DNA of 24,000 nt from Algisphaera agarilytica (GCF_014207595.1 NZ_JACHGY010000001.1:3604212-3628211); one strand, 5' to 3'; shown: positions 6,125 through 21,311, counted from the first letter of the stretch. Numbers and translations: made by a program. The notes: a model not told the origin generated them from the letters alone.

Positions 6125-6204
6125 GGAGGTGTTCCCAAGAAGATCCCCGAGGACTGGCCGTGCTTTAGATTGGAAAAGCCCGATATGATCCATCAGTGGC
6201 AACT

Positions 6205-7233
6205 ATGCGTTATGCCGTCCGTCACGCCAGCGAGGCCGCCGTTGAATCTCCCATGAGCCGTCCACAAGCCCTACAGATGGACTTATTCGCACAAGCGGGG
6301 GTGGGTGTGCGGGTTGTACGGCCCGAAATCGGCTCGGCGATCCCCACCCCACGCGCCGCCGCCCGGGCAGAGACCCCCCGCGTCTGCGTGCTGGGCTCGG
6401 GCTCGGGCGGCAACTCCACGGTGCTGAACCACGCGGGGCGGTCGCTCCTCATCGACGCGGGCTTCGGCCCACGCACCACCACCCAGCGCCTCGCCCAGGC
6501 GGGTCTGACGCTGTCCGACCTCAGCGCGATCTGCCTGACGCACTTCGACACCGATCACTTCCGCAAGACCTGGATCCGCCCGATGGTCGATCTGGGCATC
6601 ACGCTCTACTGCCACCACTGGCACCTGCCCGACCTCCGCAAGGTGCAGAACAATCAGCAGCTGTTTGATGCGGGACTGGTCGAGCCGTTCGACGACAAGC
6701 CGTTCGAGGTGTGGGACGGCCTGGAGGCCTCCACCGTCCGCCTCCAGCACGATCGGCAGGGCACCATCGGCTACCGCTTCGACACCCGCGACTTCGCGGT
6801 CGGCCTCGCCACCGACCTCGGCCACGCGCCCGAACACCTCTGCGTCCACATGGCTGGGGTCGATGTGCTGTGCATCGAGTCGAACTACGACGAACACATG
6901 ACCGTGAACTCCCCGCGCCCCGCGTGGGTGAATCGGCGGAACCTGTCGGACTCGGGCCACCTCTCCAACGAGCAGTCCCTCGCTGCGGTGCAGCGCATCG
7001 CCGAGCTCAGCCCCCACGGCAACCCGCGGCGCGTCGTGCTGCTGCACCGCTCGAGCCAGTGCAACCACCCGATGAAGGTGCAGCGCTGTTTCGAGACCGA
7101 TCCCGCGATCGCCAAACGCGTCACGCTGACCGATCAACGCCGACGCACACGGTGGATCACTGCGCCGCCGCTGCGGGCGGTCCGACGCCGCCAACAAACC
7201 TTGGCCAGGGTGCGGGTGCGTGAATCGGCTTAA
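6205..7233 (+). CDS. MBL-fold metallo-hydrolase (YycJ/PhnP-like) with a variant metal motif
   Basis: VCVLGSGSGGNSTVL...SLLIDAGFG...AICLTHFDTDH...ATDLGH...SGHLSN...VLLHRS follows the order of metallo-beta-lactamase-fold motifs. The start is ambiguous: GTG 6196, ATG 6205, ATG 6253 or ATG 6277. The stop TAA 7231-7233 overlaps the stop of the convergent gene. Confidence 0.7.
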   Translation: MRYAVRHASEAAVESPMSRPQALQMDLFAQAGVGVRVVRPEIGSAIPTPRAAARAETPRVCVLGSGSGGNSTVLNHAGRSLLIDAGFGPRTTTQRLAQAGLTLSDLSAICLTHFDTDHFRKTWIRPMVDLGITLYCHHWHLPDLRKVQNNQQLFDAGLVEPFDDKPFEVWDGLEASTVRLQHDRQGTIGYRFDTRDFAVGLATDLGHAPEHLCVHMAGVDVLCIESNYDEHMTVNSPRPAWVNRRNLSDSGHLSNEQSLAAVQRIAELSPHGNPRRVVLLHRSSQCNHPMKVQRCFETDPAIAKRVTLTDQRRRTRWITAPPLRAVRRRQQTLARVRVRESA

Positions 7234-7604
7234 TCCGTGTCGGACACCGATCGCAGCCGATACACCCGCTCGGCCATGCGTGACGAGATTTTCTGCCCGC
7301 ATTCCGGGCAATCCCATCGCCCCGCCTGGATCGTCGGCCAGAGCTCGTATCCACACGCCAGGCACCGCCCGCGCCCCAGCACGCTCAGGACGTGCCGGTA
7401 GTTCAACACGGCCGCCCAGACGTATATCACCAAGCTGACGACCGAAAACGCCAGCAGCAGCGACGCGACGACCCACGATCGCCCGTAGATCGGTACGCCG
7501 TTGAACGCGATCGGTGTAGCCAACCAGCACAAGAGCATCGGCAGTGCCAGGTGTCGCGCTCGCGCCCAAGTCGGGTGGCGGATGGACGCCTCGAGCGAAT
7601 CCAT
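7230..7604 (-). CDS. Two-TM membrane protein with a C-terminal CxxC...CxxC zinc ribbon (124 aa), last gene of the ebo operon
   Basis: ORF 7230..7817(-) trimmed to the ATG at 7602-7604, which overlaps the eboF stop by 1 nt (TAATG). Hydrophobic segments are LALPMLLCWLATPIAF and WVVASLLLAFSVVSLVIYVWAAVL, followed by GRCLACGYELWPTIQAGRWDCPECGQKI. Confidence 0.6.
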   Translation of the reverse strand: MDSLEASIRHPTWARARHLALPMLLCWLATPIAFNGVPIYGRSWVVASLLLAFSVVSLVIYVWAAVLNYRHVLSVLGRGRCLACGYELWPTIQAGRWDCPECGQKISSRMAERVYRLRSVSDTD

Positions 7605-8950
7605 TATTCGCCTCTCGATCCGAACAACGCGTCGAGGATCACCCCACGCACATCCGTGCACGGCCGCGGCGTCTCCGACACGCCTGTGCCGATCAGAAGC
7701 GGCTGCAACTCCGATGGGTTGTTGATGCGCCCGTGTGTGCCACGCACCAGATCGGTGTCGAGCGGGGTGACGTCCATGAGTTGTCGGAAGCCGAGTTTCT
7801 TGCGCAGCAGCTTCCACGCGATCGCGGCCTTGCCTTTGTCCGCGAACAGCTCGCGCGGGTCGTAGCCTGGCTTGCGGTGGATGTCGACGGTGCGGGCGAA
7901 GTCCGGGGCCTTGCTCTCATCTAGCCAATAGTCGTAGGTGAACCACCGTCCCGGGTCCGCAACGAGCACGGTGTTGCCCGCGCGCGGGTGCTCCATCTCC
8001 ACCGGCTGACATCCGGGGATGAGCGGCAGCTCCAGGCCGGGCTCGTGGTACACGTGGGCAATCTGGTGATCTGCCACCGCGAACGCCCGGCAGGCCCCGG
8101 GGTCGAGCAACTCGCCGCCGTCTTCTTCACGGACTTGAAGCAGCCCGGCCCCACGCAGCATCTGGTTGATGTTGATCGCGGCGTCCTGCGGGAGCGTGGG
8201 CTCGATGCCGTACTCGCTGAGCAGGACGACGCGGACATCACGCTTGGCGTAGTGATCGAGCAGGTCGCCCACCACCGCGTCAACCTCGGCAACATGTTGC
8301 GGGATGTCGGCGTGATCGGGGCCTAGCTTCTGCAGGCCGTAGTCGAGGTGGGGCAGGTAGACGAGGCTGAGCGAGGGCTGGTGCCACTGATCCACCCGCA
8401 TCGCGGCGTCGGCGATCCACCGCGTCGAGGTGATGTCGGCCAGCGGCCCCCAGAAGCGGAACAGCGGGAAGGTGCCGAGCTCGGCTTGCAGGCGGTCACG
8501 CAGTTCGGGGAGGTTGGCGTAGCAGTCGGGGATCTTGCGCCCATCCGCTTTGTAGATCGGGCGGGCCTGCAGGACGATGTCGCACGCCGAATAGGTGTTG
8601 TGCCACCAGAACAGGTTGGCGCAAGTGAAGTTGGGGTTGCGCTTCTTTGCCGTTTCCCAAACCTTCTCGCCGTGGACGAGGTGGTCGCTGCGTTGCCAGA
8701 ATCGGACTTCGCAGGTGTCGCGGTGGTACCAGCCGTTGCCGACGATGCCGTGTCCCCCGGAACCGTCAACGGGCAAACCCGTGGTCATCGACGCCTGGAC
8801 GCTGCACGTTACCGCGGGGAAGACGGGTTGCAGGGGGGTGACGCCGCCGGTGGCCTCGGCGTAGGCATGGATGCGCGGCGCGTGCGGCAGCAGCGAGGGC
8901 GTGAGCCCCACCACGTTCAACACCGCGATCGTTTGCATCGACTCTGCCAT
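7604..8950 (-). CDS. eboF: EboF-type alkaline-phosphatase-superfamily enzyme (nucleotide pyrophosphatase/phosphodiesterase family)
   Basis: 448 aa. The N-terminal IAVLNVVGLTPSLL ... FPAVTCSVQASMTTG resembles the metal/Thr-nucleophile region of type I phosphodiesterase/NPP proteins. The ATG 8948-8950 abuts the eboC stop (TAAATG) and is preceded by AAGGAAG. The assignment is strengthened by the eboC/E/B/D context. Confidence 0.8.
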   Translation of the reverse strand: MAESMQTIAVLNVVGLTPSLLPHAPRIHAYAEATGGVTPLQPVFPAVTCSVQASMTTGLPVDGSGGHGIVGNGWYHRDTCEVRFWQRSDHLVHGEKVWETAKKRNPNFTCANLFWWHNTYSACDIVLQARPIYKADGRKIPDCYANLPELRDRLQAELGTFPLFRFWGPLADITSTRWIADAAMRVDQWHQPSLSLVYLPHLDYGLQKLGPDHADIPQHVAEVDAVVGDLLDHYAKRDVRVVLLSEYGIEPTLPQDAAININQMLRGAGLLQVREEDGGELLDPGACRAFAVADHQIAHVYHEPGLELPLIPGCQPVEMEHPRAGNTVLVADPGRWFTYDYWLDESKAPDFARTVDIHRKPGYDPRELFADKGKAAIAWKLLRKKLGFRQLMDVTPLDTDLVRGTHGRINNPSELQPLLIGTGVSETPRPCTDVRGVILDALFGSRGE

Positions 8951-9745
8951 TTAGCTTCCTTTGATCCATCGCTGACCTGCGAGACTCAGCACCGCACACC
9001 CCGCGCAGAACACCGACATCGGCCACAAGCCCATCAGCCCGACAAACAACGCATCGACCAGCGCCATCCCCGCGATCATGACGCCGATCCACGAGGCGAG
9101 CTTGCCCATGCTCGGCAACGCTTCGCCCCAGGCGATGAGCGTGATGATCAACGTGTAGCACGTAATTGCGAGCACACTGCCCAACACACGCGGGAGGTCG
9201 GCGTCGATTCCAACCCCCGCCATAAACGCCGAGGCCGATAGCCAGATCACCAACCCGCGACATACGGGCATGAGCACCAGCCCCGCCCAGCGCCAGCGGT
9301 GCAAAAGGTTGTAGCCCAAGATCGCCGCGACCAGAACGCCCGCCCACACCGACACGGCTTGCGGGTAGACGAGGGTGCACGCCCAGCCCAGGGCCAGCAT
9401 GACCACCCCGCCGATGAATGCTTCTCGCTGCGTAACCCGTCCGCTGGGGATCGGGCGGTTGGGGCGATCCTCTTTGTCGATCGCGACATCGCACGCGTCG
9501 TTCAGCACCATTCCGGCGGTGTAGAGCAGGCTCATCCCGACGAGTAGCAGAAACGCCTGGTCAAGCAATCGGCCCAGGTCGCCCCAGCCGATCGGCGGGA
9601 CCTGGCCGGGGTACTCTTGGCGGAGCGGTTCGAGGAGGGCGACGAACATGCCGACCGACAGGCCGTGCACGACGTTCGACCACACGGTGGGCAGGTTGCT
9701 GATGCGCCCGAGGTTGAGCCAGGCCTTGAGGTACTTCCCGATCAT
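8951..9745 (-). CDS. eboC: EboC-type UbiA-superfamily prenyltransferase (polytopic membrane protein)
   Basis: ORF 8951..9973(-) trimmed to the ATG at 9743-9745 (MIGKYLKAWLNLGRISNLPTVWSN), giving 264 aa that are hydrophobic throughout. The first Asp-rich motif NDACDVAIDKEDRPNRPIPSG (NDxxDxxxD) is characteristic of UbiA enzymes. The start overlaps the eboE stop (ATGA). Confidence 0.8.
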   Translation of the reverse strand: MIGKYLKAWLNLGRISNLPTVWSNVVHGLSVGMFVALLEPLRQEYPGQVPPIGWGDLGRLLDQAFLLLVGMSLLYTAGMVLNDACDVAIDKEDRPNRPIPSGRVTQREAFIGGVVMLALGWACTLVYPQAVSVWAGVLVAAILGYNLLHRWRWAGLVLMPVCRGLVIWLSASAFMAGVGIDADLPRVLGSVLAITCYTLIITLIAWGEALPSMGKLASWIGVMIAGMALVDALFVGLMGLWPMSVFCAGCAVLSLAGQRWIKGS

Positions 9746-10962
9746 CGGCCGTGTTCCGTGAGGACCCACTGCAATTCGTCGCCGATGCCCGCGGCCAGGT
9801 CGTCGGTCTGCAGCGATTCGGGCAAGACATCCCAGGCGTAGGTCTCGACCTCGAAGTGGTGCGTCTCGTCCTCGGGTTGGATGGCGGCGAGGTAGTCGCC
9901 GATCTGGGATTGGGTCGTGTCGCTCGGGCCGAGCGTGTCGAGGTGGACCGGGACGTGGAAGTGCACCCGCCATTCGCCACGCGGCTGGGGTTGATCCGCG
10001 AGTGCATCGGGCAGGTCGAGGTAGCTGTTCACCCGGCCGTCGTCGGTGCGGATCGAGGTCTGGTGGAGGTAGCGGTTTTCGCAGAAGCCGTGGAGCTGAG
10101 TCAACGCGGCGGAGCGTGTTTCGGCATCCATCGTGTCGAAGTCGACACGGACCGCCGAGGAGAGTTGGGCCTTGCCGACTTTGATTCCCGCGTCACGGTA
10201 GTTCTGCAACGCCTCGGCCTGATCTTCGAACATGACCGCGGCGTGGCAGACGTCGTGGCACACGCGGAGGTACGACAACACGCTCAGGTCGTCCGCGCCG
10301 CCGAGCAGGAACTGTTCGAAGAACTGGACGACTCCCGCCGAGGTTTCCAGGATGCAGCCGGGCTCGGGTTCGAGGTCGATGTGGATGTGCTTGCCGGTGT
10401 CGAGCTCGATGCGGGCCAGCGTGTGGACGAGCTGCATGAGTTGGTCGGTCGCGGCCTGGGCTTGCTTAGGGTAGTCCTCCGGCCGGCCGCAGAACGACGA
10501 CGGCCACCCCAAAGGCAAAGTTGAGATCGATCCTTCTTCCGCGTCGTCCGGGAGCAACTCGGCCAGGATCGACGCGAGGCCGAGCGTGTAGTCGTAGCGG
10601 TCGCGGTCGGCCCAGTGGGGTAGATACACCTTGCCCTTCATGACGGGTTGATGGAAATCGTCGTAGGGGAAGCCGTTGAACGTGTACGGCAACAGGCCAT
10701 GCTCGGACAGCCAGGCGCGGAAGTCGGGGATGAGTTTTTCGGCGACGGCGTCCTGCATCGCCTGGGCCGAGAGCCAGAGCCCGACGCCCATCGGCGCATC
10801 GGGGCTGACGCGTTGCTTGACCGGCAGGGCGTAACGCTCAAGGTTGGCTTTCATCTGCGCGAACGAAGCGCCCGCGTGGACGTTGGTGCAGTAGCCGAGG
10901 ATGGTGCCGGAGCCGAGGGCGTCGCGCATTGAGGTATTAAACCACGAAGCGGGGGACAACAC
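9742..10962 (-). CDS. eboE: EboE-type xylose-isomerase-like TIM-barrel protein (sugar phosphate isomerase/epimerase family)
   Basis: 406 aa from GTG 10962, or 395 aa from ATG 10929. The N-terminal ILGYCTNVHAG and the overall length match what I recall of EboE proteins. The call rests on that recollection plus the operon context. Confidence 0.7.
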   Translation of the reverse strand: MLSPASWFNTSMRDALGSGTILGYCTNVHAGASFAQMKANLERYALPVKQRVSPDAPMGVGLWLSAQAMQDAVAEKLIPDFRAWLSEHGLLPYTFNGFPYDDFHQPVMKGKVYLPHWADRDRYDYTLGLASILAELLPDDAEEGSISTLPLGWPSSFCGRPEDYPKQAQAATDQLMQLVHTLARIELDTGKHIHIDLEPEPGCILETSAGVVQFFEQFLLGGADDLSVLSYLRVCHDVCHAAVMFEDQAEALQNYRDAGIKVGKAQLSSAVRVDFDTMDAETRSAALTQLHGFCENRYLHQTSIRTDDGRVNSYLDLPDALADQPQPRGEWRVHFHVPVHLDTLGPSDTTQSQIGDYLAAIQPEDETHHFEVETYAWDVLPESLQTDDLAAGIGDELQWVLTEHGR

Positions 10963-10998
10963 GAAGGGTGTTAAGCTCGCGGTCGTCTTGATGGATCG

Positions 10999-11100
10999 GG
11001 GTGGCCGGGGATGAGGCTTGGCGAAACCCAGGAACGGTTTGCGGGGTGCTGAGCTCTTGTCTGTGGTTCCGGGGCATCGCGGACCCTGCCCCGGCCACCC
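10999..11100 (-). promoter_or_regulatory. Nested GC-rich stem structure in the eboB-eboE spacer (possible RNA element)
   Basis: 10999-11010 gggtggccgggg is the perfect reverse complement of 11089-11100 ccccggccaccc (12 bp). It encloses 11027-11035 cccaggaac / 11066-11074 gttccgggg (9 bp, 1 mismatch). No U-tract follows on the transcribed strand. Confidence 0.3.
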
Positions 11101-11119
11101 AAAGTTGTGAATGCAAACG

Positions 11120-11998
11120 TTAGACGCTGAACCGGCCGGACTGGGAAAGGAACGCTTTGGGGTTGGCGAAGGTGATGCGATCGATGAGCTTTTGGGTGTG
11201 GCCGCGGGCCTTCATCTCGGCGATGCACTTGGGCACGCTCAGCGGGTCGGAGTGGCCCCAGTCGCCCGCGGAGTTGATCCAGAGGCGTTCGTCGCCGTAG
11301 CACTCGACGATGTCCACGGCCCGCTGGGGGGTGCATTTGCTGTCGGGGTAGAGGGTCATGCCCGCCCAGTAGCCCTGGTCAAGCACCATGCCGACGGTGT
11401 GTTCTTCGACGTGGTCGATGAGGACGCGCTCGGGGCGGATCCGACCGTCGCGTTTGAGGGCGTCGAGGATGAGCTGGGTGCCTTTGAGTTTGTCTTCGAG
11501 GTGGGGCGTGTGGACGAGGATGAGGCGATCGTGCTCGGCGGCGACGGCGATCTGCTCTTCGAGGATGGCCATCTCGTTCTTGGAGTTTTTGTTGAGGCCG
11601 ATCTCGCCGACGCCCAGGACGTTGGGCTTGTCGAGGAACTCGGGCAGGAGCTGGATGACCTCACGGGCGAAGCCGGGGTCTTCGGCTTCTTTGGGGTTGA
11701 TGCAGACCCAGGCGTGGTGGGCGATGCCGTGGGCGGCGGCGCGCTTGGGCTCGACCTCGGTGAGCTGGACGAAGTAGTCGTAGAACCCCTGCGGCGAAGA
11801 GCGGTCGTAGCCCGCCCAGAACGCGGGCTCGGTCACGGCGACACAGCCGGCCAACGCCATGCGCTGGTAGTCGTCGGTCGTGCGGCTGACCATGTGGATG
11901 TGGGGGTCGATGTAGGGCAAGGGCAGGGAGTAGGCAGTAGGGGAGAGCGGCTTAGGGTTGTGGGGCGCCAGAGGCGCCTTTGCCGGGGGCTTTGTCAA
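11120..11998 (-). CDS. eboB: EboB-type TatD-fold metal-dependent hydrolase
   Basis: YIDPHIHM (HxH), GVGEIGLN, LILVHTPH, LIDHVEEH and NSAGDWG appear in the order of the TatD/amidohydrolase metal ligands. No ATG lies upstream of the HxH motif. Candidate starts are TTG 11998 (292 aa, 47-nt overlap with the upstream ORF) or TTG 11920 (266 aa). Confidence 0.75.
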   Translation of the reverse strand: MTKPPAKAPLAPHNPKPLSPTAYSLPLPYIDPHIHMVSRTTDDYQRMALAGCVAVTEPAFWAGYDRSSPQGFYDYFVQLTEVEPKRAAAHGIAHHAWVCINPKEAEDPGFAREVIQLLPEFLDKPNVLGVGEIGLNKNSKNEMAILEEQIAVAAEHDRLILVHTPHLEDKLKGTQLILDALKRDGRIRPERVLIDHVEEHTVGMVLDQGYWAGMTLYPDSKCTPQRAVDIVECYGDERLWINSAGDWGHSDPLSVPKCIAEMKARGHTQKLIDRITFANPKAFLSQSGRFSV

Positions 11999-12260
11999 GG
12001 AGGTCCGTCGTTGGGTCGCTGAGTTGTTCGAGGATTTGGCGGGTGCGGTCGGGTTGGTCGCTGCTGAGTAGCTCGAGGGCGTTGCGCAGGGCGGCGAGGC
12101 GGAAGTCGGTGTCGCCTTGGGCGTTTGAACTTCCGGGGGCCCGGTCGCAGCGGTCGAGGAACGCGGCGAGGTCCAGGAGCTTGGCGCGGTACTCGAGGAA
12201 GGTGCGGTCGAGCAGGGCGTCGAGGGGCTCGGGGCAGGTTGGTTTTTTAGGTTTGGCCAT
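11952..12260 (-). CDS. Small helical protein (102 aa) in the EboA position of the cluster; family not recognised
   Basis: This is the C-terminal part of track ORF 11952..13310(-), starting at the ATG 12258-12260: MAKPKKPTCPEPLDALLDRTFLEYRAKLLDLAAFLDRCDR.... Third-position GC is high and the composition is normal, unlike the Arg/Pro-rich upstream part of the same ORF. It begins 11 nt after the eboD stop. Confidence 0.5.
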   Translation of the reverse strand: MAKPKKPTCPEPLDALLDRTFLEYRAKLLDLAAFLDRCDRAPGSSNAQGDTDFRLAALRNALELLSSDQPDRTRQILEQLSDPTTDLLDKAPGKGASGAPQP

Positions 12261-12271
12261 GGCGGCTGGGG

Positions 12272-13441
12272 TCAGCGGGTGTTGGCTTGGGTGGCAGAAG
12301 TGAGTTCGTCGATGCAGCGTTGCATGAGCGCGGTGTCGATCTCGTGGAGGTCGAGGGGGTCGGCGACGCCGCGGATCATGGTGACGGTGAGTTGGCCGCC
12401 GAGGTGTTCGCGGAACTCGTTGAGACCGTCGAGCAGGGCGGGGTTGGTCAGCTCGGGGTGTGCGAGGGCGAAGCCCATGCGGGTGAGCGTGGCTTTGATA
12501 TCGGTTGCGATTGCGGGAGTGAGCAGGCCGGTGTGGGCGGCGTAGGTGACGTCGAGGGCGAGGCCGATGGCGACGGCCTCGCCGTGGCGGAGCTCGTAGC
12601 CGGTGAGTTGTTCGAGTTTGTGGGCCGACCAGTGGCCGAAGTCCAGCGGGCGGGCCGAGAGGTTTTCGAACGGGTCGCCGCCGCCGCCGTCGGCTTTGGA
12701 TGCGGTGATGTGGTGCAGGTGGAGCTGGGCGGAGCGTTGCCAGACGTCGTCGCTGAGCGTTGAGGTGCGGCGAGCAAGATCCTCGGCGTTGTCTCGGAGC
12801 AGCGTGTAGAACTCCGCGTCCTTGAGCAGCGCAACCTTGACCGCTTCCGCGAGGCCGCAGCGCCAGTCGCGGTCGGACAGCGTGTCGAGCAGGGCCAGGT
12901 CGTTGACCACGGCGTGGGGCACGGCGAAGGTGCCGATGAAGTTCTTCTTGCCGAACATGTTCACGCCGTTCTTCACGCCGACACCCGAGTCGCCCTGGGC
13001 GAGGGTGGTCGTGGGCATGCGGACGAGACGCACCCCGCGGTGGGTGACGGCCGCGGCAAACCCCACCATGTCGAGCAGCGCCCCGCCCCCAATCACCAGC
13101 ACTGTCGATCGGCGGTCGATGCCCAAACGGTTTATCTCGCCGAGCAGGCTTTCGAGCAGCGACAGGTCGTTCTTGCCTTGTTCGCCCCCGGGCATAGCGC
13201 GGAATCCGACGAGACGCGGGAGGCGGTCGGCGTGGTAGGCGACATAACCTTTGAGGTCGCGTTGCAATGTGAGCGTGGACTCGACCAAGCCCTGATCCAC
13301 CACGACCCACAGCCTCGGCTCGCCCGGCTCGTCGCGCACATCCAGCACCTGGGCGAGCGTAGGGTTACTCACGTCAAACGCTCCGCGGGTAAAACGCACG
13401 CGGTGGGGCAACTCAAGATGGACGGTGTGGTCGGTCGGCAC
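12272..13441 (-). CDS. eboD: EboD-type 3-dehydroquinate-synthase-like sugar phosphate cyclase
   Basis: 389 aa from a GTG start. DHQS-fold motifs are VLVIGGGALLDMVGFAAA, RMPTTTLAQGDSGVGVKNGVN, FGKKNFIGTF and RHGEAVAIGL. The LNxGHTxGH region of true AroB is replaced by LDFGHWSAHKLE. It is embedded among eboB/C/E/F-type genes. Confidence 0.8.
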   Translation of the reverse strand: MPTDHTVHLELPHRVRFTRGAFDVSNPTLAQVLDVRDEPGEPRLWVVVDQGLVESTLTLQRDLKGYVAYHADRLPRLVGFRAMPGGEQGKNDLSLLESLLGEINRLGIDRRSTVLVIGGGALLDMVGFAAAVTHRGVRLVRMPTTTLAQGDSGVGVKNGVNMFGKKNFIGTFAVPHAVVNDLALLDTLSDRDWRCGLAEAVKVALLKDAEFYTLLRDNAEDLARRTSTLSDDVWQRSAQLHLHHITASKADGGGGDPFENLSARPLDFGHWSAHKLEQLTGYELRHGEAVAIGLALDVTYAAHTGLLTPAIATDIKATLTRMGFALAHPELTNPALLDGLNEFREHLGGQLTVTMIRGVADPLDLHEIDTALMQRCIDELTSATQANTR

Positions 13442-13473
13442 AAAAGAATCCGAAGGGAAACCAAACCCTTAGT

Positions 13474-14823
13474 TTAGTCAGAAGAACCGCGGAGCCGATC
13501 CAGGAACTCGAAATAATCGGGGAAGGTTTTTTCGACGCAGCTCGGGTCGTTGATCACCACCTGGCTGCCTTCGCCGCCCGAAGCGCCTAGCCCCGCCACC
13601 GAAAACGCCATCGCCATGCGGTGGTCGTCGTAGGTGTCGATCTCGGCGCCGCCCAAACTCTCGAGCGCAGCGGCCACGCCCTCGGCGGGGGGGGTGATCG
13701 TGATGTCGTCTTCAATCGTCGTGACCGATGCGCCCAGCTTGATCAGCTCGTTCTCGAGCGCGGCGATGCGGTCGGTTTCTTTGACACGCAGGTTACCGAC
13801 GTTGCGGATCGTGGTGGGGCGGTCTCCGAACAACGCGACCACGGCCAGCGTCTGGGCCATGTCGGGCATGTCGTTGAGGTCGACATCCACGCCGCGGATC
13901 TGGCCGTCCACCGGCGCGGTGATGGTGGTGGAGTCGAGCTTCTGGTCGACGCCGCATCCCATCCGCCCGAGCACATCGCAGAACTCCGCGTCGCCCTGGA
14001 GGCTGCGCGAGCCCAGGCCCTCAACGGTGCAACGGCTGCCCGGCACCACGGCCGCGGCGGCGAGGAAATAGCTGGCGTTGCTGGCGTCCGGCTCGATGGG
14101 GTAGTCGTAGTGCCGGTACCCGCCCGTTGGCACGTGCACCGCGCGGTAGCCGGTGTCGGCTTCGAACTCGGCGCCGAACTGCTTCATCAGGTTCAGCGTC
14201 ATCTTGACGTAGGGTAGGCTGGTCACCGGTCCGTCGAACTCGATCTCCAGGCCACGCTGGAGGTACGGCCCGATCATCAGCATCGCCGAGATGAACTGGC
14301 TCGACAGCGTCGGCGTGAGCTCGAGGAACCCGCCGTTCATCCCCGGGGGCTCGGCGATGATCTTCAGCGGGGGGTAGCCGTCTTCGCCGAGGTACTCGAT
14401 GTCGGCTCCGAGTTCGAGCAACGGCTCGACCAGTTCGCCGATGGGGCGCTGCCGCATGCGTGGGATGCCGTCGAGGGTGTACTCGCCCAGGCCCAGGCAC
14501 AGCGCCGCGGTGAGGAAACGCATGGCGGTGCCCGCGTTGCCCAGGTGCAGCTCGGCCTCGGTGCTGGGGATCGTGCCGTGCTTGCCGCGGATGGTCACGG
14601 CGCGGTTGGGCTCGTCGATGTTGAGTTGGAAACCCAGGGCTTCGAGCGCTTCGAGCATCCGCCGGGTGTCGTCGGCAAACAGGACGCCGGTGAGTTTGGA
14701 CGAGCCCTTGGCCAGCGCGGCGAGCAGCAGGGCGCGGTTGGTCAGGCTCTTGGAACCGGGCGGGCGCAGCGTGACATCGAAGGGATCGAGCCGGCTGATA
14801 GGCAGTGATTCAAGCATATTCAC
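13474..14823 (-). CDS. aroA: 3-phosphoshikimate 1-carboxyvinyltransferase (EPSP synthase)
   Basis: LRPPGSKSLTNRALLLAALA, LHLGNAGTAMRFLTAAL and LRVKETDRIAALENELIKLGA are canonical class I AroA motifs. The start is GTG 14823 or ATG 14817. The stop lies 32 nt upstream of the eboD start on the same strand. Confidence 0.9.
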   Translation of the reverse strand: MNMLESLPISRLDPFDVTLRPPGSKSLTNRALLLAALAKGSSKLTGVLFADDTRRMLEALEALGFQLNIDEPNRAVTIRGKHGTIPSTEAELHLGNAGTAMRFLTAALCLGLGEYTLDGIPRMRQRPIGELVEPLLELGADIEYLGEDGYPPLKIIAEPPGMNGGFLELTPTLSSQFISAMLMIGPYLQRGLEIEFDGPVTSLPYVKMTLNLMKQFGAEFEADTGYRAVHVPTGGYRHYDYPIEPDASNASYFLAAAAVVPGSRCTVEGLGSRSLQGDAEFCDVLGRMGCGVDQKLDSTTITAPVDGQIRGVDVDLNDMPDMAQTLAVVALFGDRPTTIRNVGNLRVKETDRIAALENELIKLGASVTTIEDDITITPPAEGVAAALESLGGAEIDTYDDHRMAMAFSVAGLGASGGEGSQVVINDPSCVEKTFPDYFEFLDRLRGSSD

Positions 14824-14877: not shown

Positions 14878-15207
14878 TCAACCCTCCGCCTTGCGGAAGA
14901 CGGCCACGACGTTGGCCACGGGCACGACAAACAGCCGGTTGTCGCCCTCGAAATCGACCGGAATCGCGTCTTTGGGGTTGAACAGCACGCGGTCGTACTG
15001 CTCGATGGGGTATTTCTCGTCGACGGCGACCTCGGCCGAGACGGTCACGACCCGGCCGGTGAGGGTGGGGATTTCGATCTTGTCGGGCAGGTGGATGCCG
15101 GACTTGGTCTGCTTCTTGTCCTGGTCCTTGCGGATCAGCACGCGCTTCCCGATGGGCTCGACGGTTTCGAGCGGCTGGGGTTTGGAGGTTGGGGTGGATT
15201 GACTCAT
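14878..15207 (-). CDS. GroES/Cpn10-fold co-chaperonin-like protein (orphan, no groEL downstream)
   Basis: VEPIGKRVLIRKDQDKKQTKSGIHLPDKIEIPTLTGRVVTVS...YDRVLFNP...VVPVANVVAVF aligns by eye with GroES (IxPLxDRVLVK..E.KTxGGIxLP.....K...G.VVAVG...GD.V.F..........I....DILA). An extra 16-aa N-terminal tail is present. Confidence 0.6.
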   Translation of the reverse strand: MSQSTPTSKPQPLETVEPIGKRVLIRKDQDKKQTKSGIHLPDKIEIPTLTGRVVTVSAEVAVDEKYPIEQYDRVLFNPKDAIPVDFEGDNRLFVVPVANVVAVFRKAEG

Positions 15208-16049: not shown

Positions 16050-16793
16050 ATGTGCACCGCCACCCTGATTCAAACCGACCCGTCCGCCCCGGCCCTCCGC
16101 CTGGTGACCAATCGCGACGAGTTGCACACCCGCCTTCCCGCCGATCCGCCGGAGATACGCACGTTCGGGGACTACCAGACGCTGCTCCCGATCGACCCGC
16201 AGAGCGACGGCACCTGGATCGCCGTCAACGAAGCGGGGCTGGTCATCACCCTGCTGAACCTCAACCCCGAGCAAGCACCGACGCCACGGCCGGGCCTGCG
16301 TAGCCGTGGGGGCGTGGTGCCATCGTTGATGGGTTGTTCGACCGTGAAGCAAGCGATCGAGATCGCAAAAGAACTGCCCACTCAGACGATGATGCCGTTC
16401 CGCTTGCTGCTTGCGGACCGAGACAACGTCGCCACGGTGCGTGCCGACGGGCAATCCGTGGCCACCGCGGTGCACCCGATTGCCGACGCCCCGGTGATGC
16501 TGACCAGCTCCGGGCTGGGCGATCACATCGTCGAAGGGCCTCGGCGTGACCTGTTTGAGAGTGCCCCGCCCCGCGACGCCGAGGCTCAGGATGCGTTCCA
16601 CCGCCACCGCTGGCCGGACCGCACGCCTGTCTCGGTCGCGATGTGCCGGGAAGACGCCCGCACCGTCAGCCGCACCGTCGTGGAGATCGACGCCCATCGG
16701 GTGCAGATGCACTACACGCCCGTCTCCATGTACGGCGGGGAAGGGGAACTCCAAGTGTTGACCTTGCCCCTGCGAGCCGAGGCCAAGGGGTGA
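16050..16793 (+). CDS. NRDE-family (TANGO2-like) protein
   Basis: The N-terminal MCTATL (Cys2) and the eponymous LVTNRDE motif sit at the expected position near residue 20. The protein is 247 aa. The stop TGA 16791-16793 overlaps the GTG 16790-16792 of the next gene. Confidence 0.8.
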   Translation: MCTATLIQTDPSAPALRLVTNRDELHTRLPADPPEIRTFGDYQTLLPIDPQSDGTWIAVNEAGLVITLLNLNPEQAPTPRPGLRSRGGVVPSLMGCSTVKQAIEIAKELPTQTMMPFRLLLADRDNVATVRADGQSVATAVHPIADAPVMLTSSGLGDHIVEGPRRDLFESAPPRDAEAQDAFHRHRWPDRTPVSVAMCREDARTVSRTVVEIDAHRVQMHYTPVSMYGGEGELQVLTLPLRAEAKG

Positions 16794-19483
16794 CCACGAT
16801 CAAGAAGCAACCCCGCAAACCTCGCCGAGCGCGTCGGCCGTTCCTGCGTCAGCGGTGGTGGAAGGTGTATGGGCTGCTGGTCGTTTTGTCGTTTGGCGTG
16901 CAAACCTACCGCAACGCCAACACGCCATTGGATGGTGAGCCGGGAACAGCGATGGTGCAGACCCCCGCGTTCACCAAGGAGGGCGGCGGGGGCGAAGCCC
17001 GGGTGGATTTCGCGTACATCGATACGGACCTCAAAGCGGGTTCCGCCGCCTCACCAGCAGATGGTGTCGAATCCGATGAACGCCCCGTGCTGATTCTCAT
17101 CCACGGCTCGCCGGGGGCGAAAAAGAATTTCAGCCTGCTGATCCCCACGCTCGAATCGCATTTCCGAGTGATCGCGCCGGACATGCCGGGCTTCGGGGAT
17201 TCGTCGAAGTGGATTCCGTCCTACAGCACCCGTGCCCACGCCCGCTACGTGCTGGAGCTCATGGACCAGCTCGAGATTGAGTCGGCCCACATCCTTGGCT
17301 TCTCCATGGGCGGCGGGGTCGCGCTCAACCTTTTCGACCTTGCGCCCGAGCGCCTCGAATCGATCATCTTCTACGGCGCGATCGGCATCCAGGAAGGCGA
17401 GGGCACCGGCGACTACGGGTTCGAACACTTCAAGTACACCGTGGGCTACGGTGCTTTGGTGGCGGCGCCCGAGTTGGTTCCGCACTTCGGCTTGCTCGGG
17501 CCCCGGTGGTTCCGCCACTCGTTTATCCGCAACTTCAACGACACGGACCAGCGGCCGATGCGCGGGTACCTCGAGGCGATGAACACGGCCGACACGCCGT
17601 TCCTGATCCTGCAGGGCTACAACGACCCGCTCGTCCCCGAGTGGACCGCCCGTCAGCACCACAACATCGTCGAGCACAGCGAACTGGTGATGTTCGACCG
17701 CTCGCACTTCATGGTGTTCGATCAAAAGGGCGCGGCGATGCTGGCCGAGGAGATCGTCCCGTTTGTCGAACGGTTCAGCACGCCCGGAGCGGTGCCGACG
17801 CGGCGGACCGTGATGGGCCCGCACTTTGAAGAAGACCAGCCCAGCATCTTGCCTGTGGCTCTGGACATCCCGCGGGGCACAAACCCGTGGTGGACGGTGG
17901 CGGTGATTTCTGCGGCGAGCTATGTGCTCGAAGACCCGGTGACGATCACGGTCGGGCTGATGATCCGGGACGGGAAGATCGATGCGTTTCTCGGCGTCTT
18001 CGCGGTGTTCATCGGCATCTTCACCGGCGACTTGTTGCTCTACCTGATGGGCGTGATTTTCGGTCGGCGGGCGCTGGCGTGGGGCCCGGTCGCCAAGCGT
18101 TTGCCCGCCCGGCACGTCGAGGCGCTTGGGCACTGGTTCGACACGCACGGCTGGTCGGCCGTGTTGGCGTCGCGGTTCCTCCCGGGGACTCGGCTGCCGC
18201 TGTACGTCGGGGCGGGGGCGCTGGGCAAGAAGCCCGGGCGGTTTGCGTTGTGGACCTTCCTGGCGGTGATGATCTGGGCCCCGGTGATGTTGCTGCTGGT
18301 GGTCTTGCTGGGCGAAGCAGCGGCGAGCCCGTTCAAGCTGCTGTTTGGTGACAGCTGGATCGCCCTGATCGGCGTGGTGATGGTGCTGTTGATGGTGGTG
18401 CGGGTTGTGATGCAGCTCCCGACCAAGCGGGGGCGGCAAGGGCTTTGGGTGAAACTCAGTCGGGTCTGGCGGTGGGAGTTCTGGCCGATGTCGCTGTTCT
18501 ATCTGCCGCTGGTGCCGTGGCTGGTCTGGTTGGCGCTGCGGTATCGGTCTACGACGGTGTGGACGCTGGCCAACCCGGGCCTGCCGGATGGCGGGGTGGT
18601 GGGTGAATCCAAAGCCGAGATCACCGCGGCGCTGTGCACGCCGACGGACGAGCACGTCCTGCCCGCGGTGCTGGTGCGTGATGCCGACGAGGCGCGGCGC
18701 GCGATGGCCGAGAAGGGCTGGTCGCTGCCCGTGATCGTGAAGCCCGATGCGGCGCAACGCGGAGCGGGGGTTCGGCTGATCGAGCCGGGCGAAGACTTCG
18801 ATGAATACTTCGGCGACTCACAGGCGCCTGCGATTTTGCAGAAGTACCACCCCGGGCCGTTCGAGGCGGGCGTGTTCTACACCCGCACGCCCGGTGAGCC
18901 GCGTGGCCGAATCTTCTCGATCACCGACAAGCACTTCCCGCACCTCACCGGCGACGGCGAGTCGACGCTGGAAGAATTGATCTGGGCCCACCCGCGCTAC
19001 CGCATGCAGGCGTCGGTCTTCCTGCAGCGGTTCGAGGACGCCAACGAACGCGTCCTGGCCGAGGGCGAAACGCTCCGTCTGGCGATGGCGGGCAACCACT
19101 GCCAGGGCACGCTGTTTGCCGATGGTGGGCATCTGATCACGCCCGAACTCGAAGCGGCTGTGGATGAGGTCGTGCAGCGGGTGGAGGGGTTCTACTTCGG
19201 CCGGCTTGATGTGCGGTACGCCGAGGTGGAGTCTTTCAAACGGGGCGAGGACTTTGCCGTGGTCGAGCTCAACGGCGTGACCAGCGAATCGACGAATATC
19301 TACGACCCCAAGTGGTCGCTATTGCGGGCGTACCGCACGCTGTTTCGCCAGTGGGCCGTCTGCTTTGCGATTGGTGATGCCAACCGAAAACGCGACGGGT
19401 TGGAGCCGCCCAAGGCCTGGGCGCTGATCAAGCGTGTGCGGCGTTACTACAAGCAGCGGCAGTTCGACCTGCACGCGGACTAG
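16790..19483 (+). CDS. Tri-domain membrane protein: N-terminal TM anchor, alpha/beta-hydrolase, DedA/VTT (SNARE-associated) membrane domain, C-terminal ATP-grasp ligase-like domain
   Basis: Track ORF 16643..19483 trimmed to GTG 16790 (GTGA overlap with the NRDE stop), giving 897 aa. It begins with a basic N-terminus and a TM helix (KKQPRKPRRARRPFLRQRWWKVYGLLVVLSFGV). The hydrolase (about 16985-17776) shows LILIHGSPGA, the nucleophile elbow GFSMGG (Ser codon 17303-17305), GYNDPLVP and DRSHFMVF. The DedA-like region (about 17876-18538) shows FTGDLLLYLMG...SRFLPGTRLPLYVGAGALG. The ATP-grasp-like region (about 18560-19480) shows LPVIVKPDAAQRGAGVRLI ... FAVVELNGVTSESTNIYD. Confidence 0.75.
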   Translation: MTTIKKQPRKPRRARRPFLRQRWWKVYGLLVVLSFGVQTYRNANTPLDGEPGTAMVQTPAFTKEGGGGEARVDFAYIDTDLKAGSAASPADGVESDERPVLILIHGSPGAKKNFSLLIPTLESHFRVIAPDMPGFGDSSKWIPSYSTRAHARYVLELMDQLEIESAHILGFSMGGGVALNLFDLAPERLESIIFYGAIGIQEGEGTGDYGFEHFKYTVGYGALVAAPELVPHFGLLGPRWFRHSFIRNFNDTDQRPMRGYLEAMNTADTPFLILQGYNDPLVPEWTARQHHNIVEHSELVMFDRSHFMVFDQKGAAMLAEEIVPFVERFSTPGAVPTRRTVMGPHFEEDQPSILPVALDIPRGTNPWWTVAVISAASYVLEDPVTITVGLMIRDGKIDAFLGVFAVFIGIFTGDLLLYLMGVIFGRRALAWGPVAKRLPARHVEALGHWFDTHGWSAVLASRFLPGTRLPLYVGAGALGKKPGRFALWTFLAVMIWAPVMLLLVVLLGEAAASPFKLLFGDSWIALIGVVMVLLMVVRVVMQLPTKRGRQGLWVKLSRVWRWEFWPMSLFYLPLVPWLVWLALRYRSTTVWTLANPGLPDGGVVGESKAEITAALCTPTDEHVLPAVLVRDADEARRAMAEKGWSLPVIVKPDAAQRGAGVRLIEPGEDFDEYFGDSQAPAILQKYHPGPFEAGVFYTRTPGEPRGRIFSITDKHFPHLTGDGESTLEELIWAHPRYRMQASVFLQRFEDANERVLAEGETLRLAMAGNHCQGTLFADGGHLITPELEAAVDEVVQRVEGFYFGRLDVRYAEVESFKRGEDFAVVELNGVTSESTNIYDPKWSLLRAYRTLFRQWAVCFAIGDANRKRDGLEPPKAWALIKRVRRYYKQRQFDLHAD

Positions 19484-19495
19484 TGTCAGGGTGTG

Positions 19496-20239
19496 TCACT
19501 GAAGCCGCTGGATGGTGGTGGCGTCGATCTTGAACCACGCCAGGTCGCCGTGCTGTTCGATGGTTCCCTCGGCCGAGATCGGGTCGGCGATGTAGGGCTC
19601 GATGGAATCGAAAACCGCCTGGCCCTCGCTGTCGGTCAGCAGGTAGAGCTTCCGCTCATCGCCCGGGGTTTTGGTGAGAAACATCGGGGGGATGCCGCCC
19701 TTGATGCAGAGCGTCGCGCACGCCTTATGGATCTTGCCCTCGCCCGGCTTCATCGCGCCGAGGTAACACTTGGGGTCGATGATCTGCCCGATGAGTTGGA
19801 AGCGGCCCTCGGGTTCAGCATCGGGTGTTGCCACCGAGGGTTCGCCGTCTGCGGCTTCGATGCCCGACTCGTTGTCCAATAGGGTGAGCATCGCTCGGCC
19901 GTCCCGCTCGACCACGTTGCCCCGAACGGTGACGCGTTGCCCGGCGTGGCTCGCCACACGGTCGCGTACGCCGGTCTTGCCCTGCGAAACCAGGAGGATG
20001 GTTTGCAGCCCGTCGTCAGCCGCGGTGAGTACCGCGGGGTACGGTTCAGCGATCAGCAGGCCGGTGTAGGCGTCGGCCTGGCTCAGGTCCCACGAGCCGG
20101 TGCCGGGGTCGTTCTGTTGTGCGGGGATGAGGCCCGCGATGAGCACGCCCGCGACAAGCAACACGGGCAAGAGCACCAGCAACCGGCCCCGGATCCCCTT
20201 GGGCACCGGGAGGTATCCGACATAGAACTCACGCTTCAT
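19496..20239 (-). CDS. N-terminally TM-anchored, predicted periplasmic protein with a conserved-looking Cys/His cluster; unknown function
   Basis: 247 aa. MKREFYVGYLPVPKGIRGRLLVLLPVLLVAGVLIAGLI is a signal anchor. The motif is IIDPKCYLGAMKPGEGKIHKACATLCIKGGIPPMF (C-x16-C-x3-C with one His). The ATG 20237-20239 overlaps the upstream Rieske gene by 11 nt. Confidence 0.6.
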   Translation of the reverse strand: MKREFYVGYLPVPKGIRGRLLVLLPVLLVAGVLIAGLIPAQQNDPGTGSWDLSQADAYTGLLIAEPYPAVLTAADDGLQTILLVSQGKTGVRDRVASHAGQRVTVRGNVVERDGRAMLTLLDNESGIEAADGEPSVATPDAEPEGRFQLIGQIIDPKCYLGAMKPGEGKIHKACATLCIKGGIPPMFLTKTPGDERKLYLLTDSEGQAVFDSIEPYIADPISAEGTIEQHGDLAWFKIDATTIQRLQ

Positions 20240-21311
20240 GGTTCGACTCCGGTGGGGGGGAGGCTTCGATCGTGGCGGGCTCGACCGCCGTGCCCGGCGG
20301 CAACGGCTCGGGGTTCACCAGGATGCGCGAGCCCTGAACGCTGACCCGGTAGGTCGGGATTTTCTCGGTGAACGGCGGCGGGGATTGACCGTTGTGCGGG
20401 AGGTATTGGTAGCCGTGCCACGGGCAGGTGAGGCAGCCGTCGACGACTTTGCCTTCGCCGAGTGGCCCGTGCTGGTGGGCGCAGACGTTGCTGACCGCCG
20501 AGACCTTGCCGTCGTATTTCAGGACGGCGATGCGTTCGCTTCCCGCGAGGGTGACGACCTTGCCGTAGCCATCTTCGATGTCGTTCACATCAGCGACATC
20601 GATCCATTCCTGGTCGTCGGTGTTCGGGGCGGCGGCATCTTTGCGCCACTCACGCCAACCCGTGATCAGGTGCAGGCCCGCGATCATGACAAAGCCCAGC
20701 ACCAGCAGCCCGATGTACAAGACACTCGGGTTGCTCTGCAACGCGCCGAGGACGACATGCATCACCAGCAGTGCATACGCCACGTAGACCAGCGTGTGCA
20801 GCGTCTTCCAGGTGCGCGGCCCGAGGTTCGCCAACCAGAAGTCGTGGCTCGTGGCGGCCATGAGGAACAGGATCAAGAGGGCGATGAAGCCCAGCGGCTG
20901 GAAGGGGAACGCGGCGATCTGGTCGTAGTTGCCGTTGCTGGTGAAGATCGAGACGATCGGGTTGACCACCCCGAAGCCGTGGTACCACAGCGTCGCAAGG
21001 GCCGCGTGGAGGAATGCGAGGATGAACATGGTGACGCCCATATGACGCCGGTTGTACAGCAGCGGCGCGAACACCCCCGGCCAGAGCCGAGCCAAGGGGC
21101 CGATGCAGAGGATCAGGTGGAGCAGGATGATCGCCGCCGTGCCGAACGCGCGGATGAGCAGCGTCATCGGCGTGATGCCGTTGTCGCCGGACAGTGCCAG
21201 CGAACTCACGACGACAAAGACGACGAGATACAGCCCCACGCCGCCCGCGAGCAGCAGGTCGTACACCTTCTTGTGCTTGTTCCATTGCACCGCGCGGTAG
21301 GCATGGCTCAT
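20229..21311 (-). CDS. Ferric-reductase-like (MsrQ/YedZ-type, 6-TM, dihaem-b) domain fused to a C-terminal Rieske [2Fe-2S] domain
   Basis: 360 aa with six hydrophobic helices and conserved-position His residues (LLHLILC, RRHMG, AFLHAAL, LHTLVYV, VMHVVLG). The C-terminal CAHQHGPLGEGKVVDGCLTCPWHGYQY is the Rieske signature CxH-x16-CxxH. The start ATG 21309-21311 overlaps the upstream stop (ATGA). Confidence 0.8.
   Translation of the reverse strand: MSHAYRAVQWNKHKKVYDLLLAGGVGLYLVVFVVVSSLALSGDNGITPMTLLIRAFGTAAIILLHLILCIGPLARLWPGVFAPLLYNRRHMGVTMFILAFLHAALATLWYHGFGVVNPIVSIFTSNGNYDQIAAFPFQPLGFIALLILFLMAATSHDFWLANLGPRTWKTLHTLVYVAYALLVMHVVLGALQSNPSVLYIGLLVLGFVMIAGLHLITGWREWRKDAAAPNTDDQEWIDVADVNDIEDGYGKVVTLAGSERIAVLKYDGKVSAVSNVCAHQHGPLGEGKVVDGCLTCPWHGYQYLPHNGQSPPPFTEKIPTYRVSVQGSRILVNPEPLPPGTAVEPATIEASPPPESNHEA

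Follow-up and report, generated by a model that had tools for sequence, protein, structure and literature searches.

An eboG-type ebo operon in the planctomycete Algisphaera agarilytica

Described ebo systems and the A. agarilytica locus

The ebo genes occur in the canonical order eboABCDEF in Bacteroidota, Cyanobacteria and eustigmatophyte plastids (e.g. in Aureibacter tunicatorum pAT1 and in Maribacter). A second order, DGBECF, was tabulated for Deinococcus and Herpetosiphon by Yurchenko et al. in 2016 (Open Biol 6:160249; PMC5133447, Table S2). According to the same authors, the small protein EboG stands in place of EboA in the Deinococcales, in Herpetosiphon, in an acidobacterium and in Thermithiobacillus, the two proteins are unrelated, and the EboB and EboC phylogenies divide along the A/G line (PMC5133447). 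Here we analysed a stretch of 24,000 nucleotides (nt) from Algisphaera agarilytica (GCF_014207595.1, NZ_JACHGY010000001.1:3604212-3628211), hereafter called the window. The 102-aa, Zn-ribbon and UbiA proteins described below show 100% identity to A. agarilytica proteins encoded on a contig of 4.10 Mb. A. agarilytica is a cultured member of the Phycisphaerae and was obtained from Cladophora, a green alga (PMC4042473). The minus strand of the window carries eight intact, co-directional open reading frames (ORFs) between positions 7230 and 14823, and six of them form an intact ebo operon of the published eboG type, in the order eboD-eboG-eboB-eboE-eboC-eboF. The identities of these genes, their orthology, their arrangement and their distribution were established in this analysis.

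Several steps of ebo metabolism have been described in other organisms. DEI is formed by EboD out of mannose-6-phosphate (Tanoeyadi 2024, as cited in PMC12904256), and EboC (UbiA-297) transfers a farnesyl group to 8-hydroxyquinaldic acid and to related quinolines (PMC9235831). In recent work, the ebo genes have been tied to thallusin, a signal from bacteria that influences the shape of green seaweeds. According to a bioRxiv preprint of May 2026 (10.64898/2026.05.21.724671, hereafter the preprint), thallusin production tracks the ebo genes in 35 strains of four phyla and in three cyanobacteria, the quinoline ring takes up L-aspartate, the EboCs of three phyla farnesylate a 6,7,8-trihydroxyquinaldate ester, and Stieleria maiorica no longer makes thallusin when eboB, C, E or F is singly deleted. 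The labelling data of the preprint speak against a shikimate origin of the quinoline. An initial annotation of the window had described the product of the cluster as still unknown, a statement that is superseded by the synthesis of DEI by EboD, the farnesylation by EboC and the preprint on thallusin.

When compared to the DGBECF clusters of Deinococcus spp. and Herpetosiphon aurantiacus, the window locus agrees in its six genes, in their order, in their location on one strand and in the clade of its EboB. It differs from them by its Phycisphaerae host, its position behind aroA, a 181-nt insert between eboB and eboE, the short form of its EboC and an extra gene for a Zn-ribbon protein coupled to eboF. 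With the canonical eboABCDEF clusters it shares orthologous EboB to EboF proteins (25-45% identity to those of Aureibacter for EboB, C, D, E and F) and the presence of a small protein upstream of eboB, but the canonical clusters follow the order A-B-C-D-E-F, have EboA (models NF035937 and NF035938) as their small protein and encode an EboC that passes the cut-off of NF035940. The thallusin gene set of the Planctomycetia (Stieleria maiorica Mal15, Rhodopirellula) belongs to the same phylum and contains the same core of eboB, C, E and F; its genes are scattered, whereas the six genes of the window, including eboG, are contiguous. The actinomycete clusters with the order ino1-eboC-ino2-eboA-eboB-eboE-eboF, found in the saccharoquinoline and thallusin producers Saccharomonospora and Streptomyces, also share the core B, C, E and F, but they are of the EboA type, have no eboD and obtain the cyclitol via inositol-3-phosphate synthase.

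Within the window operon, eboD (12272-13441) encodes a sugar-phosphate cyclase resembling 3-dehydroquinate synthase (DHQS), with a score of 499 bits against NF004852 (cut-off 333). It is followed by eboG (11952-12260), which encodes a small helical protein of 102 amino acids (aa) recognised by its homology to the Deinococcus gene located between eboD and eboB, and by eboB (11120-11998), which encodes a TatD-fold metal hydrolase (PF01026, 33 bits, cut-off 27). The next gene, eboE (9742-10929, within the ORF 9742-10962), codes for a xylose-isomerase-like TIM barrel that matches the equivalog model NF035939 (TIM_EboE) over positions 1-378 of 379 with 442 bits (cut-off 250). The last two genes are eboC (8951-9745), coding for a UbiA-type prenyltransferase of a short form of 264 aa (PF01040, 54 bits, cut-off 34), and eboF (7604-8950), coding for an enzyme of the nucleotide pyrophosphatase/alkaline-phosphatase family (PF01663, Phosphodiest, 182 bits). 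The ebo nature of the cluster, already proposed in the initial annotation, was thereby borne out, as the EboB, C, D, E and F families were all matched by NCBIfam or Pfam profiles and the genes are co-directional, in an order that recurs in other genomes. On the other hand, this order had been written as D-(A?)-B|E-C-F and regarded as an unusual rearrangement, although DGBECF had been in the literature since 2016 (PMC5133447, Table S2).

The junctions between the genes are tight. Direct reading of the sequence shows an overlap of the eboE stop and eboC start in ATGA at 9745-9742, a TAAATG between eboC and eboF at 8953-8948 and a TAATG between eboF and the Zn-ribbon gene at 7606-7602. These junctions, the coordinates of the genes and the 32-nt gap between the aroA stop and the GTG of eboD (13442-13473), which contains a weak 5-bp hairpin at 13470-13453, are present base for base as first annotated. 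A scan for terminator-like sites gave 7 against 5.9 +/- 2.1 expected and hence showed no enrichment. Two start sites can be placed differently. The ATG at 10929 is most likely the true start of eboE, its first codons being kept as MRDALG, MHDALG or MLDVLG in five relatives, and the region between eboB and eboE is therefore 190 nt long (10930-11119) and not 157 nt. For eboB, a TTG at 11920 may be the start codon, giving a protein of 266 aa; this start is proposed because alignments with homologues begin at residues 25-29, and the genes of Deinococcus and of the related locus L036 (L numbers designate the loci compared in this analysis) encode 266-276 aa. With this start, the 47-nt overlap of eboG and eboB is replaced by a 31-nt gap. 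The DPHIH motif of EboB is found at residues 31-35.

EboG and the enzymes of the cluster

The 102-aa protein had tentatively been taken for EboA, an assignment that was not upheld. No Pfam or NCBIfam model matched it, and the EboA models NF035937 and NF035938 remained silent even at E<=10; both do match the Aureibacter EboA, with 171 and 138 bits, respectively. A relationship to EboA was also rejected by hhalign, in which an EboG profile of 43 sequences matched an EboA profile of 5 sequences with a probability of 0.18%. BLASTP, in turn, matched it to the gene that occupies the G position in Deinococcus (44-45% identity, E 1e-16 to 1e-18). On the two Deinococcus plasmids, the annotation lists, one after the other, 3-dehydroquinate synthase, hypothetical protein (108-112 aa), TatD, eboE, UbiA and phosphodiesterase. 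The name EboG was assigned by position, as this is the sole gene of the Deinococcus clusters outside the ABCDEF set, and not by direct comparison with the WP accessions of Table S2.

The eboG gene lies between eboD and eboB in nine Planctomycetota loci, and wherever it was seen it immediately precedes eboB, including a contig with only G and B (P0048), the locus L035 and Gemmatirosa. EboA holds the matching position relative to eboB in the A-type clusters. We infer that EboG and EboA are both partners of EboB. A profile search for EboG retrieved 1,318 representatives (of clusters at 50% identity) at E<=1e-3, of which 616 remained at E<=1e-10; the family is bigger and better conserved than its label of "short and poorly conserved" would indicate. 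The motifs FLEHRAKLLDLAAFLDR, DFR and SD are invariant, and the C-terminal tail SDPTT..APGKGAxGA is conserved. An AF2 model of EboG (pLDDT 78.5) consists of three helices, with the conserved APGKGAxGA tail at low confidence, and a Foldseek comparison of this model with the PDB returned nothing better than E = 3.3 and thus no fold-based clue to function. With some 1,300 representatives and without a Pfam or NCBIfam model, EboG is the least understood conserved component of the ebo system.

Some members of the family showed other architectures. In a single case, P0303, a GAF domain is fused to EboG. Two further representatives, P0383 and P0320, were considered as EboG-EboB fusions and were set aside because of their read-through or chimeric appearance: P0383 is spliced at a shared EPKRAA motif and P0320 resembles a frameshifted EboG-EboB read-through, so that both may be artefacts of assembly or gene calling.

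The cyclase is distinct from AroB, as had been proposed. Its score against the aroB model TIGR01357 was 203 bits, under the cut-off of 305, and the EboDs of Aureibacter (ABCDEF), Azospirillum (ABFDEC) and Deinococcus (DGBECF) likewise pass NF004852 and fail TIGR01357. In a neighbour-joining (NJ) tree with six AroBs, one DOIS and two sedoheptulose-7-phosphate cyclases as the outside set, all EboDs including that of the window formed one clade with 100% bootstrap. The window EboD is 40-49% identical to the EboDs of other phyla and 26-28% identical to the AroBs; the closest solved structure is that of an ordinary DHQS (140 bits). The model NF004852 (PRK06203) bears the name "3-dehydroquinate synthase" and yet captures every cluster-borne EboD tested. 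By this name, RefSeq labels EboD-type DEI synthases as DHQS, and the equivalog thus constitutes an annotation trap for EboD-type cyclases.

EboB reflects the type of the cluster. When the TatD protein was compared to plasmids by tblastn, the best matches were found in Gemmatirosa (60%) and on the two Deinococcus plasmids (56-58%), far ahead of EboA-linked homologues (44-48%). Compared with cluster-borne proteins, the window EboB is 56-60% identical to EboG-linked EboBs and 45-46% identical to EboA-linked ones. An NJ tree of 20 EboB sequences separated the EboG-linked from the EboA-linked proteins with 100% bootstrap and placed the window protein on the G side. The window EboF is 44-54% identical to cluster-borne EboFs, and EboE is 42-52% identical to the EboE of Pirellulaceae.

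EboC keeps the NDxxDxxxD motif. Its score against NF035940 was 91.6 bits, under the cut-off of 250, but the cluster-borne EboCs of Deinococcus (107 bits) and Azospirillum (89 bits) fail in the same way, and this model therefore tests for the Bacteroidota subtype only. The score of the window protein on the model of SCO3242-type prenyltransferases was nearly equal to its NF035940 score (88 bits). Relative to the Deinococcus and Azospirillum references, about 45 residues are missing from its C-terminal half. UbiA homologues with a length of 235-265 aa are common, and in G-type as well as A-type surroundings they are located between eboE and eboF. As such homologues cover 98% of the query, the idea of a truncated or degenerate EboC was rejected, and the protein is, as judged from its sequence, a normal short subtype. 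Counts of transmembrane segments by the Kyte-Doolittle method were too noisy to be used for EboC.

Proposed product and alternative explanations

By the definition of the thallusin gene set given in the preprint, the window cluster is a member of this set. The chemistry and the final product are inferred, each step by orthology to characterised enzymes. In the pathway that we propose, EboB (TatD), EboE (TIM barrel) and EboF (phosphatase family) would convert the cyclitol and L-aspartate into a polyhydroxylated quinaldic acid. The membrane prenyltransferase EboC would then add a farnesyl group from farnesyl diphosphate (FPP), and may also cyclise it, to give a saccharoquinoline-type meroterpenoid, the oxidation of which would yield thallusin. 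EboG would act as a small cytosolic helical partner, possibly as a subunit of EboB with an accessory or regulatory role. The product of the operon is thus probably thallusin or a compound of the saccharoquinoline type, an assignment that we make with some reserve. This makes A. agarilytica a testable candidate producer of thallusin; as it is in culture and derives from an ulvophyte green alga, it could reveal whether this compound is also made by eboG-type clusters.

Several points weigh against this assignment. We know of no enzyme, in any organism, for the final oxidative ring opening. The EboC of the window shares no more than 25-38% identity with its counterparts in the reference clusters, and the transcript is only predicted to run from aroA and across the 190-nt spacer. 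The link to thallusin rests on a preprint, whose panel comprises no strain of the eboG type and no Phycisphaerae and whose text does not mention eboG. Moreover, a possible difference in end product between EboA and EboG operons was raised by Yurchenko et al. (PMC5133447).

The last of these points corresponds to an explanation in which the product of the eboG-type cluster is not thallusin but another, related prenylated metabolite derived from a cyclitol, with EboG, possibly together with the divergent short EboC, directing another acceptor, prenyl length or late step. It would agree with the lack of relationship between EboA and EboG, seen by hhalign and in PMC5133447, with the division of the EboB and EboC phylogenies along the A/G line, with the low identity of the window EboC and its failure at the NF035940 cut-off, and with the absence of G-type strains among those assayed for thallusin. 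We nevertheless consider it unlikely, because the four genes essential for thallusin, and eboD in addition, all have clear orthologues in the window, the short form of EboC is also found beside an eboA-type gene set (L050), the actinomycete clusters with an SCO3242-type EboC still yield thallusin, and the EboCs of three phyla, which are mutually about as divergent, farnesylate one common substrate (preprint). A wider version of this explanation appears to us equally doubtful. In it, EboG-type operons would have either a different end product or a different regulation, with EboG as a non-homologous functional replacement of EboA that binds or controls EboB, and the Phycisphaerae would have gained the whole operon in one piece, separately from the scattered eboA-type genes of the Planctomycetia. 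The window operon is the first cultured eboG-type example from an alga-associated planctomycete.

Other explanations concern the role of the cluster as a whole or of its first gene. The cluster might serve mainly for metabolite traffic across the inner membrane, its product being a lipid-linked carrier and not a secreted signal. Such a role has been proposed for scytonemin precursors in Nostoc, periplasmic export defects of ebo mutants are described by Klicki et al. 2018 (PMC6282210), and NCBI names EboE a "metabolite traffic protein". The 24-kb window contains no scytonemin genes, though, and in the preprint N. punctiforme itself is found to secrete thallusin and the transport phenotype is seen as indirect; we regard a traffic role as quite improbable. 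It is still harder to believe that the cyclase is the 3-dehydroquinate synthase of the shikimate pathway, with the ebo genes next to it by coincidence. Its location 32 nt downstream of aroA would fit such a function, particularly as this adjacency is kept in the Phycisphaerae clade even where E-C-F is located elsewhere (L035), and so would its name under PGAP-style annotation. The gene product, however, fails TIGR01357 and passes NF004852 as all cluster-borne EboDs do, it groups with them at full bootstrap and away from the six AroBs, and the DGBECF clusters of Deinococcus are not beside aroA.

Two genes adjacent to other ebo clusters may be mentioned here. A homologous pair is located beside the ebo genes of Aureibacter tunicatorum pAT1 (L032, 4073-7133) and of a plasmid of Gloeothece verrucosa PCC 7822 (L033, 10981-14262). 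It encodes an uncharacterised protein of ~590-660 aa and a PF12902 ferritin-like protein, with 36% and 40% identity between the two hosts. The pair is absent from the window, from the Phycisphaerae loci and from the Deinococcus loci. Speculatively, it could be a candidate for the oxidative step from saccharoquinoline to thallusin.

Distribution, the eboB-eboE insertion and neighbouring genes

The distribution of the cluster was surveyed by a scan for EboE in one genome per species, followed by tblastn with all window proteins. All six genes were found in the order of the window in L002-L004, L009 and L010, in the additional locus L036 and on the two Deinococcus plasmids, and the loci L005, L006, L022 and L023 are consistent with the cluster but cut by contig ends. 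The order noted in the initial annotation is thus co-localised in Phycisphaerae-type metagenome-assembled genomes (MAGs) as well as on Deinococcus plasmids. Partial sets consisted of D-G-B without E-C-F in L035 and of E-C-F without D-G-B in L007, L021 and L049. In seven Planctomycetia loci of 21 kb, from Pirellulaceae, Gemmatales and one unclassified Planctomycetota MAG, no other ebo gene was found within 10 kb of eboE. The presence of a clustered and compact eboG-type operon in Phycisphaerae is modestly new. The preprint generalised the scattered state of the ebo genes to the whole phylum Planctomycetota, and the description of these genes as scattered and without a small partner gene needs correction, since the Phycisphaerae have a compact operon with eboG.

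The gene upstream of the operon is aroA (13474-14823, minus strand), which encodes the EPSP synthase (TIGR01356, 421 bits, cut-off 287) and is a neighbour and not an ebo gene. The order Cpn10-like gene, aroA, eboD is kept in L002-L004, L023, L035 and L036, with an aroA-eboD gap of 9 nt in L036, and none of the clusters of Deinococcus, Aureibacter and Azospirillum adjoins aroA. We read the adjacency as clade-level synteny within one Phycisphaerae clade; the position 32 nt behind aroA had been recorded correctly, but it is not a trait of the cluster type. The ebo operon is probably co-transcribed with aroA and the Cpn10-like gene, as far as can be predicted from their arrangement. The Cpn10/GroES-like gene itself (14878-15207, minus strand), upstream of aroA, is a lone and divergent one with no groEL beside it. 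It scored 60 bits against Pfam Cpn10 and 42 bits against the NCBIfam GroES models, the cut-offs of which are at least 96.

The intergenic region between eboB and eboE (10930-11119) is unusually long. In L002-L006, the two genes are separated by TAA, 9 nt and ATG, and in L036 by 10 nt (a spacing of 9-10 nt was noted for seven related clusters in all), whereas the 190 nt of the window include ~181 extra nt. This insertion contains a long hairpin, the base of which is a perfect 12-bp stem (GGGTGGCCGGGG/CCCCGGCCACCC). The spacer folds with -69.3 kcal/mol (z = -3.3), and none of 200 shuffled sequences folded equally well. An Rfam search of the spacer at E<=10 gave only a chance match of 11 nt, no sigma-70-like promoter was found in it, terminator-like sites were not enriched, and no other copy was detected in the window, in the 50 loci compared or in metagenome contigs. 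A repeat element or riboswitch was considered and found to be unsupported, as the spacer has neither an Rfam family nor a second copy. Among the genomes sampled, the spacer is a genome-specific insertion and not a property of the cluster type. The structured spacer described in the initial annotation is therefore present and folds well, but its length had to be corrected and it does not characterise this kind of cluster. The insertion lies at the boundary of the D-G-B and E-C-F modules, the sole junction at which other genomes separate the cluster. The existence of loci with D-G-B only (L035) and with E-C-F only (L007, L021, L049) indicates that the operon behaves as two modules.

Downstream of eboF, a gene of the minus strand (7230-7604) encodes a Zn-ribbon membrane protein of 124 aa with two hydrophobic segments and a C-terminal CxxC...CPEC ribbon. 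Its ORF starts at 7604 and not at 7606, and to judge from the TAATG junction it is translationally coupled to eboF. Only six homologues were found among 5.8 billion proteins, with the CxxC/CPEC motifs and the first transmembrane segment (TM1) invariant. The gene directly follows eboF in the window, in L004 and in L036, and it was absent by tblastn from L002, the closest relative, whose EboE is 90% identical, and from L003, L005 and L006. It is a real gene under constraint and a narrow-clade accessory. The coupled membrane protein gene reported initially was thus confirmed, except for its start, and it is lineage-specific and not a trait of the cluster type. A convergent gene of the metallo-beta-lactamase (MBL) fold (6196-7233, plus strand) overlaps its 3' end by 4 nt (7230-7233). 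The position of this MBL gene is kept in L002-L006 and L036, with or without the Zn-ribbon gene.

Several other features were observed in the window. The 538-aa product of the gene at 22327-23943 (minus strand) joins a PlsC-type acyltransferase to a GNAT Acetyltransf_5 domain, an architecture that presumably corresponds to the bifunctional ornithine-lipid synthases of the OlsF type. A 360-aa protein with a Ferric_reduct transmembrane domain and a Rieske [2Fe-2S] domain is encoded at 20229-21311 (minus strand), and its coding region is overlapped by that of a 247-aa protein without a Pfam match (19496-20239, minus strand). On the plus strand, an ORF of 946 aa (16643-19483) combines an alpha/beta-hydrolase with a VTT/DedA membrane domain and ends in ~390 residues without a Pfam match. 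Its mechanical start overlaps a TANGO2-family gene (16050-16793) by 151 nt, and the gene caller gives a protein of 897 aa. Finally, an intergenic inverted repeat at 1214-1283, with arms of 26 nt that are 92% complementary and 18 nt apart, is located between the convergently placed ends of the ORFs 131-1213 and 1306-2490.

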